Sequence record: MT533174.1
Length of the DNA stretch: 64,000 nt
Direction: 5' to 3' (one strand)
Source of the DNA: Escherichia phage CJ20
The notes under the pieces are model-generated. The model was not told where the DNA came from and did not search any database. It saw nothing but the letters and a program-made list of their open reading frames with translations. This document shows positions 40,712 to 46,545 of this stretch, piece by piece; within the stretch, counting starts at the first letter, position 1, and each line of letters starts with the position of its first letter. Position numbers and translations under genes: made by a program.

Positions 40712-41081
40712 TTTCGTAACAGGTCGTGGGTCTGAGGTGGATTCATACATTGGGTGGCTATTAGTCTCTTTGGCTTATTTTAAATCCGCCCATCTTGAAA
40801 CCAAAAGTTACGCCCGCCATAAAGCTTATGATTTCTACTTCACAGAAATCCAAGGTCCACTCGACCAGTTCAGTGAGCAATGGTTAGGTTACAGCGGGAA
40901 ACAATACAAAGCTGCATTACCGTCCGCCTCGGACTTGCCGAAAGATACAATTTTGTTTTTAGATGAAATGATTAAAAGCTCGGAAAGAGTCTATAAAGTT
41001 GTACCCAAGGCTATTCAATCGACTCTGGACGATATCGTTGGAGTTTTCTTTCAGACTAAGTATCTGTTAACATTAGAGTAA
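40698..41081 (+). CDS. hypothetical protein (rI.-1 position)
   Basis: 127-aa ORF. Confidence 0.5.
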   Translation: MKFDDFVTGRGSEVDSYIGWLLVSLAYFKSAHLETKSYARHKAYDFYFTEIQGPLDQFSEQWLGYSGKQYKAALPSASDLPKDTILFLDEMIKSSERVYKVVPKAIQSTLDDIVGVFFQTKYLLTLE

Positions 41082-41086
41082 TTCAA

Positions 41087-41114
41087 AAGGTCTGCCTTCG
41101 GGTGGACCTTTTTT
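41087..41114 (+). terminator. rho-independent terminator with UUCG loop
   Basis: GGTCTGCC-TTCG-GGTGGACC followed by TTTTTT. Confidence 0.65.
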
Positions 41115-41181
41115 CATTTAGGGGTTTACATCCTCATCAAAAGGGTGTACTATTATCCCATCAACTACTGAGGAGAACACA

Positions 41182-41385
41182 ATGAGAATTAAAAATATCA
41201 AGATTGATGCAGTTAATACTGGTGATGAGGTTGTTATCTATCTTAATGATTATGCAATCTTTATGGACAGTGCCACTGATGAAGAAGTGGTTGAACTCTT
41301 ACAGAAAGCTCCATTTGAACTGTGTGAAGAAGATGCTACCCATCTTTCATCAGCAATTTTCTCATTATCATATGTGGTGGAATAA
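41182..41385 (+). CDS. hypothetical acidic protein
   Basis: 67-aa ORF after the leader ACTACTGAGGAGAACACAATG. Confidence 0.5.
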   Translation: MRIKNIKIDAVNTGDEVVIYLNDYAIFMDSATDEEVVELLQKAPFELCEEDATHLSSAIFSLSYVVE

Positions 41386-41621
41386 TGAAACTTACAAATA
41401 CCATGGTTTCATTGGAATATGAAACCAATAATCATATTCTTGAAATTAAGATATTTGATGACAGAAGTATATTTGCTGATTACAGGGGATACAGAATCCG
41501 CCTGGAAAAGGAACAGCTTAAAGATGTTGAGCTTTTTAAAGAAACATTAAAAAGTTGTGGGTGTAAACTGAAAAATACTCAAGTCCAAGAATTAATTTCT
41601 ACCATCAACAAATACTGGTGA
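41385..41621 (+). CDS. hypothetical protein
   Basis: 78-aa ORF. Confidence 0.5.
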   Translation: MKLTNTMVSLEYETNNHILEIKIFDDRSIFADYRGYRIRLEKEQLKDVELFKETLKSCGCKLKNTQVQELISTINKYW

Positions 41622-41625
41622 TATT

Positions 41626-41808
41626 ATGTTAACTACTGAACAAATTGAAAAAATTATTAAACTCGCCTGGCATATTGAAAATGCATCTAATGACCTGGCA
41701 GTGGAATTATGTGAAGGCTATTCATATTCTGGAATAGAACAGTGTAAGCGTGATTTGAATAGTTCTAAAGCTAATTTGGTTGAGTATCTGAATGAGTTGA
41801 AAGAATAA
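41626..41808 (+). CDS. hypothetical protein
   Basis: 60-aa ORF. Confidence 0.45.
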   Translation: MLTTEQIEKIIKLAWHIENASNDLAVELCEGYSYSGIEQCKRDLNSSKANLVEYLNELKE

Positions 41809-42065
41809 TGGCTGTTGGATTTGCAAAAGATGGTGCTGAACAGTTAGAGATGGAAGCGGTTGTCCAAGCCGCTATCACCCATGCGAGAGCACAAGTTGCA
41901 GTTGAAAGGGAGTCTGCTGAATTCTGTTTTGACTGCGACGAAAAAATTCCTGAAGCGCGGAGACAAGCGATTAAAGGTGTGATATATTGTGTTGGTTGTC
42001 AATCAATGCATGATGAAATTTTTAAACGTGAGCCACGAAACTGTTGGCACAGGAGCATGAGATGA
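41808..42065 (+). CDS. DksA/TraR-type C4 zinc-finger protein
   Basis: 85 aa; CFDC then 17 residues then CVGC, matching the TraR/DksA zinc-finger spacing, preceded by a helical N-terminus. Confidence 0.55.
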   Translation: MAVGFAKDGAEQLEMEAVVQAAITHARAQVAVERESAEFCFDCDEKIPEARRQAIKGVIYCVGCQSMHDEIFKREPRNCWHRSMR

Positions 42066-42156
42066 TTTACTATCTTGAACCTTGGGCTTGGTTAACAATG
42101 GCTATAGGGCCTGTTTTAATTGGTTTATTCTTTTCATGGTTAGCGAGGAAACTGTA

Positions 42157-42372
42157 ATGTTGTATGACCCAAGTGGTAATTCTGAAAATGGTGTGATTGT
42201 TCTGGAACCTGAGCATCCAGTTGGTGACGTATACCGCCCAGTTGAAGTGTGCGAATGTAATTTTGTTAAAGGTAATACTGGTGGGATTTCCATTGAGCAA
42301 GATGATGATGTTATTTACCTGGATGCAAGCCAAGTAGAAGCGCTTTATAGTATTTTAAAACATAACCGTTGA
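42157..42372 (+). CDS. hypothetical protein
   Basis: 71 aa from the ATG after GAGGAA. Confidence 0.45.
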   Translation: MLYDPSGNSENGVIVLEPEHPVGDVYRPVEVCECNFVKGNTGGISIEQDDDVIYLDASQVEALYSILKHNR

Positions 42373-42382
42373 GGAACAGAAA

Positions 42383-42943
42383 ATGATTATTGAAACAACT
42401 GAATTGTTTGGCGAACTGACCGCTGAAGTAGTTAATAACGCAATTGAGCTTTGTCAAGAAGACGATAAAATCGTACTGACTATCGCTGATATTAAACCGC
42501 TTTATGATTTAATGGTTTTGGATAAAGATGAATATCTTAACGGTAGTTTTAGTGGTGTATTTGATATTAACGATGATGTATGCGCTCGCATTTATAAGCA
42601 CGACGCTGGGTTTAATATTGAAACAGATGAAAAATGTCTGAGCATCAGCGATTCTGATAAATTCTTTGATTGTATTTTCAAACTGTTCCAGGAAGAATGC
42701 AAGCCAGAAGTTGAATGGAAAGTCCCTGGTCAAGACGCACTGATTCGCTCTAGCGAAACGTTTGAAGGCGATGAAGAGGAATTAGATTATAATACTGAAC
42801 TGACTGTGCATCAACATAACGGCCGTGACTTGTTGTCCATTGTCCAAAGACATGACGGTGAAAGTGAAGTGGTATTTACTAAGGACGAGCTAAAAGTTTT
42901 AGTCTCTTATCTGAACTCTGTTATCCCAACTATGAACTCTTAA
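42383..42943 (+). CDS. hypothetical acidic protein
   Basis: 186-aa ORF. Confidence 0.55.
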   Translation: MIIETTELFGELTAEVVNNAIELCQEDDKIVLTIADIKPLYDLMVLDKDEYLNGSFSGVFDINDDVCARIYKHDAGFNIETDEKCLSISDSDKFFDCIFKLFQEECKPEVEWKVPGQDALIRSSETFEGDEEELDYNTELTVHQHNGRDLLSIVQRHDGESEVVFTKDELKVLVSYLNSVIPTMNS

Positions 42944-42953
42944 GGAAAATATT

Positions 42954-43406
42954 ATGATTATCAATTCAAACTCTTGGCACGTTAAATTACATGACCGTTT
43001 TTATGACCGTCATTCTCGACCACACTCTCTGTGCGCTTATTTCTGGAAAATGGTTTGGGCTTGTTTCGTTTGTGCTATTGTTGCAGGTGGTACGCTTTTT
43101 GGATTAACTGTTGCAGGAGCTAGTGTATTAGAGCATTTCTTTGTATTAAGTACTCCTGTTCTGTTGAGTCTCGGGTTTGTTTTAGGGTTGGTTGCAATAG
43201 CTCTTATTATTGCGATATCCATTGGTTTGGCCTTCGGTGCGATGAATTTACACGCGTGGTATGATTTACATAAAGAAGAAAAGGAATGGCAACGTATTAA
43301 AGCCAAACGTGAAGGAAAGGAAATTAAAGAAAACATCGTTATCCAATACATTAAAGCTCGTAAATCTAAGATGTGTCCGGTAATCCATTTTGAGGCGAAG
43401 AAATGA
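42954..43406 (+). CDS. integral membrane protein
   Basis: 150 aa; three or four hydrophobic helices; 4-nt overlap with the downstream ORF. Confidence 0.55.
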   Translation: MIINSNSWHVKLHDRFYDRHSRPHSLCAYFWKMVWACFVCAIVAGGTLFGLTVAGASVLEHFFVLSTPVLLSLGFVLGLVAIALIIAISIGLAFGAMNLHAWYDLHKEEKEWQRIKAKREGKEIKENIVIQYIKARKSKMCPVIHFEAKK

Positions 43407-44413
43407 GAACAGTTATGAAAGGCTACTTCGGTAGCCATCTTTATGGAACAAGTACTCCGGAATCTGATGTCGATTTTAAAGAAATCTTTGTTCCTCATCC
43501 GCGAGATATCCTGCTCGGGACCGCGATGAACCATACCAACCTGAACACGAATAACACGGCTACCAAAAATACAAAAGATGATGTTGACCATGAACTTTAT
43601 AGTCTGAAATATTTCTTTAAACTGGCAGCCGAAGGCGAAACCGTTGCTCTGGACATGATTCACACACCGGCTGACCTGGTTGTCAAATCCGATTTACCAG
43701 ATGTATGGAAGTTTATCCAGGATAACCGTTCACGGTTCTATACAACTAACATGAAAGCCTATTTGGGGTATGTCCGTAAGCAAGCTTCTAAGTATGGTGT
43801 TAAAGGTTCTCGATTGGCTGCACTGCGTGGTGTACTGGCAATTGTTAACCAGATTCCTGAACAGTGGGTCGATTATCAAGAAGATGGTTCTACTAAGCAA
43901 CGACGTACTAAGGTAGAAGATATCAAACACCGGCTCCCTGAAAACGAGTTCTGTGAATGGGTATTTCATAACCATGAGAAAACAGGTCCTCAAACATTCT
44001 ATACTGTTCTCGGTCGTAAATACCAAACTACCCTGTCTTTAATCGAGCTCAAGCAGTCTCTGAATAAACTTGATGCCGAATATGGTGAACGTGCTCGTAA
44101 GGCTGAAGCCAATGAAGGTATTGACTGGAAAGCTCTGAGTCATGCTTATCGTGCCGGATACCAGTTGAAGGAAATCTATCAAACTGGTGACCTCCAATAT
44201 CCTTTACGTACAGCACCGTTTATCCTTGAAATCAAACAAGGGCTTCATGCTTTTAAAGATGTACAGGCCGAACTTGAAGCTATCGTTGATGAAGTCGAAA
44301 CTAATGCCATCTGGGCCGCTAAGAATGGTATGCCTGAGAAGGTAGACATGAAGTTCTGGGACAAGTTCGTTGAAGAGGTATACCTTGACAACCACAATTC
44401 CTATTATCGTTAA
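43403..44413 (+). CDS. putative nucleotidyltransferase-fold protein
   Basis: 336 aa; N-terminal GSHLYGTSTPESDVDF matches the Pol-beta-superfamily G[GS]...D-x-D motif. Confidence 0.55.
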   Translation: MRTVMKGYFGSHLYGTSTPESDVDFKEIFVPHPRDILLGTAMNHTNLNTNNTATKNTKDDVDHELYSLKYFFKLAAEGETVALDMIHTPADLVVKSDLPDVWKFIQDNRSRFYTTNMKAYLGYVRKQASKYGVKGSRLAALRGVLAIVNQIPEQWVDYQEDGSTKQRRTKVEDIKHRLPENEFCEWVFHNHEKTGPQTFYTVLGRKYQTTLSLIELKQSLNKLDAEYGERARKAEANEGIDWKALSHAYRAGYQLKEIYQTGDLQYPLRTAPFILEIKQGLHAFKDVQAELEAIVDEVETNAIWAAKNGMPEKVDMKFWDKFVEEVYLDNHNSYYR

Positions 44414-44418
44414 ATTCT

Positions 44419-44445
44419 AAGGACCCTTCGGGGTCCTTTTTTATT
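44419..44445 (+). terminator. rho-independent terminator with UUCG loop
   Basis: GGACCC-TTCG-GGGTCC followed by TTTTTT. Confidence 0.7.
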
Positions 44446-44457
44446 TTAAAAAAAGTA

Positions 44458-44487
44458 GTGTACAACCAGATGGTCATGAGGCATAAT
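44458..44487 (+). promoter_or_regulatory. early-promoter-like element (GTGTAC, 18 bp, CATAAT) with conserved leader
   Basis: AAAGTAGTGTACA...GCATAATGATTCCATACTGAGTTA, the same cassette as at 24036. Confidence 0.45.
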
Positions 44488-44526
44488 GATTCCATACTGA
44501 GTTACCAAATAAAAACGGAGAATAAA

Positions 44527-44733
44527 ATGTTAGAATTAATCAAAGCTGCTGGTGAAAAAGGTCTGATGGTTAACACTCGTGACCCTGAACAACGTCAAGC
44601 ATTTGGCGAGTTAAAAGCCAAAGGTCTGGTTAAAGCATCCCTTGGTATTGGTAATGCTTTGCGTGTGACTTTGACCCCTGCAGGTAAAGCAATGTTCTTC
44701 CCTAAACCATTACCAAAACGTCGTCGCAAGTGA
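44527..44733 (+). CDS. hypothetical basic protein
   Basis: 68 aa from the ATG after the conserved leader. Confidence 0.5.
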   Translation: MLELIKAAGEKGLMVNTRDPEQRQAFGELKAKGLVKASLGIGNALRVTLTPAGKAMFFPKPLPKRRRK

Positions 44734-44739
44734 GGAATT

Positions 44740-45042
44740 ATGAAAAAGTATGAACTTGACATGATTGAGGCATGTCTGAAATCTGCTGACCATTTTAAGT
44801 TGAAAATGCACAAGTTAAGAGGAATGGTCAAAACTCCAGAAGAGAAGAAGCGATACGCTCTAAAGGAGAAATGTAAAGCTCTTATCATGATGGATAAGCT
44901 GCAAATGGTCGCCGCAGAAGCCCACAGGACGCGTAAAGCTGAGGCCCTTGGTGTTTATATGGCAGAGCAGCTCCATCGCGCACAGCAAGCCGTTAAGAGC
45001 GTCTGGTTCAGCGGTGAAAATACTGAAAGAACTTTTAATTAA
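44740..45042 (+). CDS. hypothetical protein
   Basis: 100-aa ORF. Confidence 0.5.
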   Translation: MKKYELDMIEACLKSADHFKLKMHKLRGMVKTPEEKKRYALKEKCKALIMMDKLQMVAAEAHRTRKAEALGVYMAEQLHRAQQAVKSVWFSGENTERTFN

Positions 45043-45045
45043 ATG

Positions 45046-45075
45046 TTGTACATAGTATGGGGATAGACGTATAAT
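45046..45075 (+). promoter_or_regulatory. early-promoter-like element (TTGTAC, 18 bp, TATAAT) with conserved leader
   Basis: Followed by GTTCCCATACTGAGTTACC...GGAGAATAAAATG. Confidence 0.45.
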
Positions 45076-45111
45076 GTTCCCATACTGAGTTACCAAATAC
45101 TGGAGAATAAA

Positions 45112-45636
45112 ATGGACGCAAAATCAATCTTTAATCTGATTAATTACAATAATGGTAATTTTAAATCAGAAGCACAAAGTAAGTTCTTTAATGATGTTGC
45201 TTGTGCGGGTGAGATTACAGTATCAGGTGGTCAAACTTATAAAAACGCCTGGAACTGGATTGTGACTGTTGATTCAGTTGGTATTGTTGATGTGTATAAA
45301 AACACCAACAAAAACCGCTCTTTGTTCTGGTCAAGAGAGACTAATGCAGAATATCAAGCGGCAAGAGCGAAGAAAAATATGCCTACTGAATCTGATGTAC
45401 AAAACATCAAATCAGATATCCAATATTATGATGGTCTGATTGCTGAACAACAAGCGGTGCTTGATAAGTTCAATGAAATCAAGGCGTGTAAAGAGATTCC
45501 TGAATTCATGAGGGAATCAGTTAATGAACAATACAATCTCACTTCAGAGCGTATTGAAACCTATACCAAACAAAGAGCAGAGCGCCAGGTACTCCTTCAG
45601 AAGTTTGAAGAGCGTTTAAAGACGGTTCTCGCATAA
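45112..45636 (+). CDS. hypothetical protein
   Basis: 174-aa ORF. Confidence 0.55.
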   Translation: MDAKSIFNLINYNNGNFKSEAQSKFFNDVACAGEITVSGGQTYKNAWNWIVTVDSVGIVDVYKNTNKNRSLFWSRETNAEYQAARAKKNMPTESDVQNIKSDIQYYDGLIAEQQAVLDKFNEIKACKEIPEFMRESVNEQYNLTSERIETYTKQRAERQVLLQKFEERLKTVLA

Positions 45637-45637
45637 A

Positions 45638-45662
45638 CGCTTTATACCAAGGATGGTATAAT
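45638..45662 (+). promoter_or_regulatory. middle-promoter-like element (MotA-box variant CGCTTTA, 12 bp, TATAAT)
   Basis: Spacing fits T4 MotA-dependent middle promoters. Confidence 0.4.
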
Positions 45663-45699
45663 GGTTCTGACCTTTGATTAATCTATTGAGGAAATTATT

Positions 45700-46545
45700 A
45701 TGTCGCAAGCAATTAATGAAATTCGTTCTGAAGTTAAAAAAGTTGTTAAATTTAACAGCATTCCAAGCACTAAAGATGTGGTTTTAAAGGTTCTATATAT
45801 GATGTGGGATAAGTTCAATGTTTGTACTAATTCTGCTGAATTCACTAAAATCTTTGAAAAGACCAAAGGCCTTCTTACATTAGAAGACCGAGTCATGAAA
45901 TCTCTTCATCGTTCAGGTATGTTGTCTCGTGCTAATGCTAAAATTCTACTTAAAAATTATAACAAAGGCTATGACCTTTATGGTCGTGCGATTAGCACCA
46001 TGACGTTTGATGAAGTGGTTAAAGACCTTTGGAAGAACCAACGACGTTTACTGGCTCTTGGTGCTCGTTTGGCAAGCGGTCAAGATAAACAAATGACCTT
46101 TAAAACCAATAATTCTTTAGATTATAAACTATTTAATGTTATTAAAGGTCAAAATGAAGGCGAATACAGTATTTCTTCTTTTAGTGGATGTCAATACGAA
46201 AACTGGAAATTCCACCTCCGTTTGGCTTTGTCTGAACTCGAACATCATGGGGTTCTTACCTTTTATGATGTTAAAACTGGAGGCGTCCAGCGTATTAAAC
46301 TATGTCAAATTAAAGACCGAGTTGAAGTCAGTCCTTCAGAACAAGCTCCTAAAATGGAACAGGTTCCAGTGCGAAGCAATGAAAAATATTCAGAGCAAAT
46401 TGAGCTTTTCACTAAACAGATTGAAGAACTTAACATCACCATCCAGCAGCAAGATGATGAAATTTTCCGCCTGACAGGATTGAACAGTGCAGCGAAAGCT
46501 GAACGTCAGAAACTGATGAACGTTATTGAATTGCTTAAGGATTAA
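45700..46545 (+). CDS. hypothetical 281-aa protein with C-terminal coiled coil
   Basis: Long ORF; no recognised domain. Confidence 0.6.
   Translation: MSQAINEIRSEVKKVVKFNSIPSTKDVVLKVLYMMWDKFNVCTNSAEFTKIFEKTKGLLTLEDRVMKSLHRSGMLSRANAKILLKNYNKGYDLYGRAISTMTFDEVVKDLWKNQRRLLALGARLASGQDKQMTFKTNNSLDYKLFNVIKGQNEGEYSISSFSGCQYENWKFHLRLALSELEHHGVLTFYDVKTGGVQRIKLCQIKDRVEVSPSEQAPKMEQVPVRSNEKYSEQIELFTKQIEELNITIQQQDDEIFRLTGLNSAAKAERQKLMNVIELLKD

Follow-up and report, generated by a model that had tools for sequence, protein, structure and literature searches.

A gene for a 150-aa membrane protein that overlaps the start of a gene for a 336-aa protein with a nucleotidyltransferase (NTase) active-site motif raises two questions, namely whether the two products act as a pair and what the enzyme acts on. 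The arrangement lies in the window, by which we mean the whole 64,000-nucleotide stretch of Escherichia phage CJ20 DNA (MT533174.1) that was analysed; its source belongs among the T4-like coliphages, in the Dhakavirus/Gaprivervirus group. The original prediction had treated the two genes as a possible coupled module and had named nucleotide signalling and tRNA repair among the roles that such a module might have.

The gene pair and its transcription unit

Both genes are on the + strand, the membrane protein gene as an open reading frame at 42954..43406 (150 aa) and the NTase gene at 43403..44413 (336 aa), and the two frames overlap as the original prediction had described. Their junction (43392..43406, + strand) reads GAGGCGAAGAAATGA, in which a GAGG Shine-Dalgarno sequence at 43392-43395 stands 7 nt ahead of the NTase ATG (43403-43405), and this ATG forms an ATGA overlap with the TGA stop codon of the membrane protein gene (43404-43406). 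The start context ATGA[GA]AAC is kept in SP18, RB32, T4 and KPV15, and it is still conserved in the two of these, T4 and KPV15, in which the upstream gene is a different one. The RefSeq annotation of SP18 places the NTase start at the next ATG instead. Because the first ATG is conserved across differing upstream genes, and because, in the AF2 model of the NTase, residues 2-9 make up the first beta strand, we take the first ATG to be the better start. The stop/start overlap is real, yet routine in this genome, where crude gene calls of the window give ATGA-type overlaps at 15 of 116 same-strand junctions and 1-nt overlaps at 11 more. The same 4-nt overlap between the two genes recurs in RB32, in JS98-like loci and in others.

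The pair is part of a series of small early-region genes on the + strand, bounded by terminator-like hairpins at 41085-41112 and 44419-44438, and its neighbours in this series include genes for a DksA-like zinc-finger protein and for mobD.3-like and mobD.1-like (y05I) proteins, among others. The second hairpin (44419..44438, + strand), which is intrinsic-terminator-like by its match to the consensus, has the form AAGGACCC-TTCG-GGGTCCTT followed by a T run, begins 6 nt past the NTase stop codon and probably closes the transcription unit. A further UUCG hairpin at 43421-43436 that was returned by the terminator scan has no T run and is not kept in relatives, and we rejected it as a signal. No T4 late-promoter motif (TATAAATA) was found near the locus, and a search of both strands of 41000-46000 returned no Rfam family. 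An antisense reading frame of 208 aa at 43037..43663 has neither a PHROG family nor homologs and was treated as non-coding.

Family and fold of the nucleotidyltransferase

A tblastn search with the 336-aa protein gave homologs in 1518 phage records. Their identity to it is 99% in phages of the VR7/VR25/VR20 type, ~82% in T4-type phages including T2, and 28-52% in phages of Acinetobacter, Aeromonas, Vibrio, Caulobacter and Sinorhizobium. The protein matches phrog_388 'nucleotidyltransferase' (E 1e-132) and Pfam PF10127, RlaP, with 43.2 bits (E 4.9e-11) against a gathering score of 23, and PF10127 is present in all of the NTase homologs among the matches listed except for one truncated fragment. 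The Pfam match joins residues 8-134 of the protein to profile positions 25-142. Because Pfam reaches only the N-terminal half of the protein, we compared a profile of the NrdC.11 clade with one built from canonical RlaP of about 250 aa (Bacillus-type proteins that match PF10127 over its full length, positions 19-248). In hhalign the two profiles aligned with a probability of 99.5% (E 3.3e-23) from query position 7 to 326 and template position 15 to 246 of 255, and the sole break in this alignment was an insertion of ~95 aa. [quoted passage not shown]

The predicted catalytic core occupies 43430..43588 (+ strand), with G10-S11 encoded at 43430-43435, D22 at 43466-43468, D24 at 43472-43474 and D62 at 43586-43588. 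Across 22 sequences that reach down to 25% identity G10, S11, D24 and D62 are invariant, as are K26, D241, K243, H247 and R250, and D22 is conserved in at least 90% of them; D62 is likely the third carboxylate, a metal ligand. The motif itself, G10-S11-x10-D22-V-D24, is present as the original prediction had read it. In its loose form this pattern occurs 10 times in the 40,197 residues of stop-free stretches of the window, and in a version with hydrophobic flanks twice. Alone, a GS-x10-DxD motif is weak evidence; here it is backed by the HMM match to PF10127, by the profile alignment and by the predicted fold.

That fold was obtained as an AF2 model (pLDDT 86.8, pTM 0.72) from an alignment of 41 sequences, among them relatives at 41-45% identity. 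The model consists of an NTase core, a beta-rich inserted subdomain and a C-terminal helical bundle. Within the core D24 opens the strand 24-30, with D22 just ahead of it, and D62 opens the strand 62-67. The inserted subdomain, together with a long helix, is encoded at 43811..44116 (+ strand; residues ~137-238, as delimited by hhalign and by the gap in the multiple alignment), and comprises strands at 154-158, 164-168, 184-191, 195-202 and 205-208 and a helix at 213-235. This insertion of ~95 aa is typical of the NrdC.11 clade and is missing from canonical 250-aa RlaP; it could change the substrate of the NTase. The solved structure closest to the model is that of Hailong HalB, a likeness at superfamily level only with 13% identity, and a fold search of BFVD returned only other phage 'nucleotidyltransferases'. 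Sequence searches of the PDB, run with the NTase itself and with the profile of its clade, gave no relevant match, and the profile had only two unrelated chance matches at E<=10. The NTase assignment of the original prediction is correct; the clear match in T4 is to NrdC.11, a protein of the same predicted function, and does not refute it.

Other NTase families with which the protein had been proposed for comparison fared less well. For CD-NTases and defence systems, neither protein of the pair matched any PADLOC family at E<=0.1, in a library that predates the mechanistic work on Hailong, and the Pfam matches included neither a CD-NTase nor a SMODS family. With the model of the minimal NTase MntA (NF047752) the score was 13.3 bits, where the cut-off is 60, and with the NTP_transf_2 model PF01909 it was 14.1 bits, where the cut-off is 21. 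No PolyA_pol-type family, of the kind expected for CCA-adding enzymes and poly(A) polymerases, was found in Pfam or NCBIfam at E<=0.1.

The membrane protein and its pairing with the enzyme gene

The 150-aa protein, a small protein of the inner membrane, matches phrog_944 'membrane protein' (E 3e-55), and its family relatives include RB32ORF096c, RB69ORF104c and EpJS98_gp092. Homologs were found in 760 phage records by tblastn, and an exhaustive profile search brought the family to 1502 clusters at 50% identity, counted by their representatives. Of the 150 representatives listed, nearly all are 125-200 aa long and are matched end to end, so that among these matches there are no informative domain fusions. 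Six residues, W8, H9, C27, Y29, C141 and P142, are invariant in 38 representatives at 24-41% identity, and the family carries an N-terminal motif, SWHxKL...SLCxYFW, and a basic C-terminal motif, Y[IL]KA+KxKxCPxIxF. The several transmembrane helices of the original prediction are roughly right. Because a hydrophobic core of 73 residues, in two blocks (27-58 and 62-99), is flanked by net-positive ends (4 K/R versus 2 D/E at the N terminus, 14 versus 8 at the C terminus), the sequence suggests two, or four, membrane spans and cytoplasmic N and C termini. The protein has no family in Pfam, NCBIfam or PADLOC, and the membrane-family profile found neither HalA nor another channel among PDB sequences, its best match being a formate dehydrogenase subunit (E 0.004). 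Matches to Oleosin (E 1.5e-4, below the cut-off), SieB and other Pfam families were scattered, sub-threshold and composition-driven, and were discarded; a weak Oleosin match has been known for RB69ORF104c since 2006 (PMC1524935). No paralog of the membrane gene was found in the window or in the T4 nrdC region.

An obligatory functional module is contradicted by the distribution of both genes. In T4 the HNH homing endonuclease gene mobD takes the place of the membrane gene and overlaps nrdC.11, T2 holds only a 33-residue remnant of the membrane gene, and the NTase is intact without it in T4, T2 and RB55. VR26, which belongs to the genus of the closest relatives, has mobD inserted exactly between the two genes, both of which are intact. 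In the Klebsiella phage KPV15 the 4-nt overlap with the NTase start is made by the gene of an unrelated soluble protein; the membrane homolog is found 1.2 kb, or three genes, upstream of the NTase. One gene separates the pair in Acinetobacter phages, of which Acj61 has two tandem copies of the membrane gene. Of the 1539 phage records found by tblastn with the two proteins concatenated, only 716 have the two genes together, and about half of the NrdC.11-bearing phages have no adjacent membrane gene.

The same is seen from the side of the membrane gene. Among 62 viral loci that carry it, five have it overlapping an NTase gene and 18 have the NTase 0.3-1.2 kb downstream, whereas at the other 39 there is no NTase within 3 kb. 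Its commonest neighbours are the NTase (23 loci), rI (22) and rI.-1 (19), and none of the 62 loci gave a conserved neighbour outside the T4-like synteny block of the Straboviridae. Similarity is discordant between the two genes: relative to the pair studied here, the NTase of VR25 is 99% and its membrane protein 74% identical, and the corresponding values for RZ are 91% and 92%. No homolog of the membrane family was seen upstream of environmental genes of the NrdC.11 clade. Separately, an unrelated four-span membrane reading frame lies upstream of the clade NTase at one such locus (L014).

On this evidence the pairing reflects synteny and not dependence, and most likely the membrane protein is the product of an independent accessory gene, which the enzyme does not need as a partner. 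A weaker form of partnership can be considered, in which the membrane protein is a genuine though optional partner in the lineages that have it and would bring the RlaP enzyme to the inner membrane, or control it there, for example near a site of tRNA cleavage. The NTase is, at 23 of 62 loci, the commonest neighbour of the membrane gene; the two share a strand and a unit, with the ATGA overlap, in Dhakavirus/Gaprivervirus, in RB32-type Tequatrovirus and in others; and the membrane protein has two conserved termini, which are predicted to face the cytoplasm and so would be open to binding. The adjacency is nevertheless explained by the synteny that T4-like phages share, given that rI and rI.-1 are almost as frequent at these loci, and no conserved partner was seen at the loci outside the Straboviridae. 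The mobD insertion leaves both genes intact, the discordant similarity points to independent exchange, and this genome has ATGA overlaps at many junctions. We accordingly hold an optional partnership to be unlikely.

A stronger form of partnership is suggested by the Hailong system, in which HalB acts together with the membrane channel HalA, both encoded in one two-gene operon; the synthesis of oligo-dA by HalB is primed by a tyrosine of the enzyme itself, and this product holds the tetrameric channel closed (PMC13434031). By analogy, an oligonucleotide or nucleotide signal made by the phage NTase would bind the basic cytoplasmic tail of the membrane protein and gate a pore. Besides the partnership of the tyrosine-primed HalB with a membrane channel (PMC13434031), this proposal can draw on an invariant YY at the end of enterobacterial NrdC.11 proteins, on the conserved lysine-rich C-terminal tail of the membrane protein, and on the recurrence of the membrane-then-NTase order with its 4-nt overlap. 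Several findings stand against it. The YY is absent as a conserved feature from the wider clade, and each gene can do without the other, which would be unexpected of an enzyme whose task was to keep a toxic channel shut. The likeness to HalB is confined to the superfamily level at 13% identity, the NrdC.11/RlaP profile has no HalB match, and sequence homology to RlaP is far stronger. The membrane family, for its part, has no Pfam family and its profile matches no HalA or channel; nor is there a PADLOC match, although that library is older than the mechanistic studies. We therefore regard a nucleotide-signal pair of this kind as very improbable, and give no better odds to the uses that it might have (exclusion, lysis timing, or a decoy against host Hailong) or to the fuller scenario of a phage Hailong-type pair in which a short nucleic-acid product of the NTase, possibly protein-primed, is read by the basic tail of the membrane protein and so sets membrane permeability, and in which lineages such as T4 have lost the effector to a homing endonuclease.

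A proposed role in tRNA repair and comparison with known systems

With the membrane protein set apart as a probable accessory, the function of the enzyme can be approached through its family. [quoted passage not shown] RlaP raised the aminoacylation of a repaired tRNA that was missing a nucleotide, and T4 NrdC.11 was placed in cluster 5 of the family; the in vivo role of RlaP is, by the authors' own statement, a proposal (PMC12776372). By 2006 a match between nrdC.11 orthologs and the nucleotidyltransferase domain COG3541 had been described (PMC1524935), and a phage RlaP had been predicted earlier to restore, before ligation, the nucleotides taken by nucleases such as RloC (PMC7824862). T4 RNA ligase 1 requires a 3'-OH, which is the end that RlaP leaves (PMC12776372). 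The stretch from nrdC.11 to mobD.3 can be deleted from T4 with viability kept (PMC9825161); any role of NrdC.11 is therefore conditional, as expected of a conditional counter-defence gene.

Part of the evidence comes from gene neighbourhoods of more distant relatives. Within 4 kb of the clade NTase, RNA-repair genes are present at 4 of 12 environmental loci, and at these four the clade enzymes are 29-41% identical to the protein described here. One of these loci (L011) carries in a row Ro60, RtcB, RtcA, the clade NTase, a second and canonical RlaP, and Hen1. In two others the clade NTase is near RtcB (L009) or near a bacterial-type Pnkp (L012), and in the fourth RtcB lies directly upstream on the opposite strand (L018). 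The clade members that are flanked by RNA-repair genes also carry the ~95-aa insertion.

This last observation bears on a further alternative, that the NTase nucleotidylylates a host or phage protein, as do MntA, DrrA and GlnE, or a small molecule, as do the aminoglycoside NTases, and serves in anti-defence or in takeover of the host. The insertion specific to the clade could provide a new surface for substrate binding, and the region is rich in host-takeover genes. Structural matches to such enzymes are, however, weaker than those to HalB and to 3c18 and reflect the shared core fold, the score of NCBIfam MntA is far below its cut-off (13.3 versus 60 bits), and membership of the RlaP family is strong by sequence. 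The RlaPs that have been tested labelled RNA and not protein or DNA (PMC12776372), and RNA-repair genes flank clade members with the very same insertion. A protein or small-molecule substrate is unlikely.

We consider it most probable, at roughly 0.6, that the NrdC.11 ortholog is a template-independent enzyme that adds nucleotides to RNA 3' ends in tRNA repair, and that the membrane gene beside it is an independent accessory gene. In the putative mechanism, a host anticodon nuclease of the RloC type cuts a tRNA and removes a nucleotide. The NrdC.11 ortholog would then restore one or two nucleotides at the 3'-OH end of the 5' fragment, after which the phage enzymes PseT (polynucleotide kinase/phosphatase) and RnlA (RNA ligase 1), encoded elsewhere, would heal and seal the tRNA. 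Neither pseT nor rnlA, nor any other RNA ligase or kinase gene, was found within the window; the close relative SP18 encodes pseT and rnlA ~87 kb away. The 150-aa gene shares the transcription unit that runs from mobD.1 to nrdC.11 and most likely holds its slot by synteny. We infer the NTase activity, its substrate, the host nuclease that is countered and the functional independence of the membrane protein. As to the roles that the original prediction had listed, it is tRNA repair that the evidence favours, and a nucleotide-signalling module with the membrane protein that it does not.

The locus is one already known, the nrdC.11 of T4-like phages with a common and optional membrane-gene neighbour: public phage genomes contain the NTase gene at 99% identity, the presence of its NTase domain was reported in 2006, and T4 NrdC.11 has been named as an RlaP. 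T4 NrdC.11 (NP_049709, 336 aa, 'nucleotidyltransferase') is equal in length to the protein described here, shows 82% identity to it over the full length, has the same N terminus and the same catalytic residues, and is encoded at the equivalent position in the tk-rI-mobD-nrdC early region. The two loci differ in what lies on either side, since mobD is directly upstream of nrdC.11 in T4 where the membrane gene stands here, and nrdC.10, which is directly downstream in T4, is missing from the window. In RB32, by its own record, the membrane gene 'replaces mobD' next to nrdC.11. The RB32 homolog is 31% identical to the 150-aa protein and the JS98-type homolog 89%. The family to which these membrane proteins belong is large (~1500 clusters at 50% identity) and marked by W-H, C and C-P motifs of striking conservation, predicted to be cytoplasmic.

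HalB of Hailong (PDB 9dbh/9dbj) is 13% identical to the NTase, with no sequence or profile similarity detectable between them, and it represses a tetrameric channel, whereas the membrane protein here has no similarity to channels and its pairing with the enzyme is dispensable. The kanamycin and aminoglycoside NTases and the MNT-HEPN type VII antitoxins act on different substrates, and the NTase does not belong to their HMM families. The Pseudomonas RlaP (PMC12776372) has the same GS/DxD/D core and the same C-terminal helical domain as the NTase. Relative to the RlaP family the phage enzyme differs by its insertion of ~95 aa and by a Pfam match restricted to the N-terminal half, and in T4-like phages its gene is not beside a ligase gene. 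Bacterial RlaP genes stand beside those for RtcB, RtcA, Hen1 and Pnkp, and so do those of relatives of the NTase from the window; T4-like phages, which have a kinase and a ligase of their own, are the obvious system in which to seek a third step of phage tRNA repair.

Ancestry and boundary of the gene pair

Judged from sequence comparison, the stretch that carries the membrane gene and the NTase gene (window 42954-44413) is of mosaic ancestry. The NTase shares 99% identity with its counterparts in phages VR25 and VR7, whereas for the membrane protein beside it the identity to VR25 drops to 74%; relative to phage RZ, the two proteins show 91% (NTase) and 92% (membrane protein) identity. The relatives also differ in which sequence type they carry over the C-terminal third of this enzyme. 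The HNH homing endonuclease mobD uses the border of the membrane gene with nrdC.11, at 43403 in the window, as a landing site: it lies between the two genes in VR26 (L104 1659-2423, the VR26 locus) and occupies the place of the membrane gene in T4 (L037 10430-11209, the T4 locus).

After the first 18 nt of the NTase coding sequence comes a hairpin with a perfect 6-bp stem and a UUCG loop (GGCTAC-TTCG-GTAGCC, window 43421-43436). Sequence comparison shows no conservation of this hairpin in SP18, T4 and KPV15, so it is probably a product of chance.

Flanking genes, a related RNA-repair island and database labels

Three genes 5' of the membrane gene, and in one transcription unit with it, lies a gene for an 85-aa DksA-like C4 zinc-finger protein (window 41808-42065; phrog_54, E 2e-20); genes similar to it also lie near nrdC.11 in KPV15 and Acj61. 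On the 3' side of nrdC.11, T4, RB32 and Acj9 carry nrdC.10, which encodes a protein of ~325 aa with weak, sub-threshold matches to AAA/STAND NTPases. The window lacks nrdC.10; in its stead, the segment 44414-44740 holds a hairpin resembling a terminator, together with an ORF of 91 aa (44458-44733, phrog_6001).

An enzyme of the NrdC.11 clade with 41% identity to the window protein is encoded in a compact RNA-repair island on the uncultured Nitrosospira contig CAADGK010000054.1 (L011 555-9274, an environmental locus), together with Ro60/TROVE, RtcB, RtcA, Hen1, an AAA_5 ATPase and a canonical RlaP of 255 aa. This canonical RlaP is encoded directly 3' of the NrdC.11-clade NTase, and the adjacency of two distinct RlaP-type enzymes suggests a division of labour between them.

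The NrdC.11 protein is named 'thioredoxin' in many GenBank and UniRef entries, a label apparently derived from the gene symbol nrdC.11, and is called 'HNH homing endonuclease' and 'ArsR family regulator' in one record each. All three labels are annotation errors.

Conserved residues and the inserted domain

Six residues (W8, H9, C27, Y29, C141 and P142) are invariant in the membrane protein family (window gene 42954-43406), whose representatives share only 24-41% identity; all six fall in predicted cytoplasmic ends and might form a metal or redox site. In T2, the membrane gene is reduced to a 33-aa remnant.

The NrdC.11 proteins of enterobacterial phages share an invariant C-terminal motif, NHxxYY[KR] (window 44393-44410). 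In HalB, the enzyme half of the Hailong pair and the nearest solved fold to the NTase at superfamily level, a tyrosine serves as the primer for DNA synthesis; since the C-terminal motif is missing in the wider NrdC.11 clade, the likeness of its YY to HalB priming is only a lead. Members of the NrdC.11 clade contain a beta-rich segment of ~95 aa, inserted where the NTase core meets the helical domain (window 43811-44116), for which fold matching gave no identification. Neither canonical RlaP nor the NTase of Krischvirus phage MIZ6, a protein of 232 aa, has this insertion.
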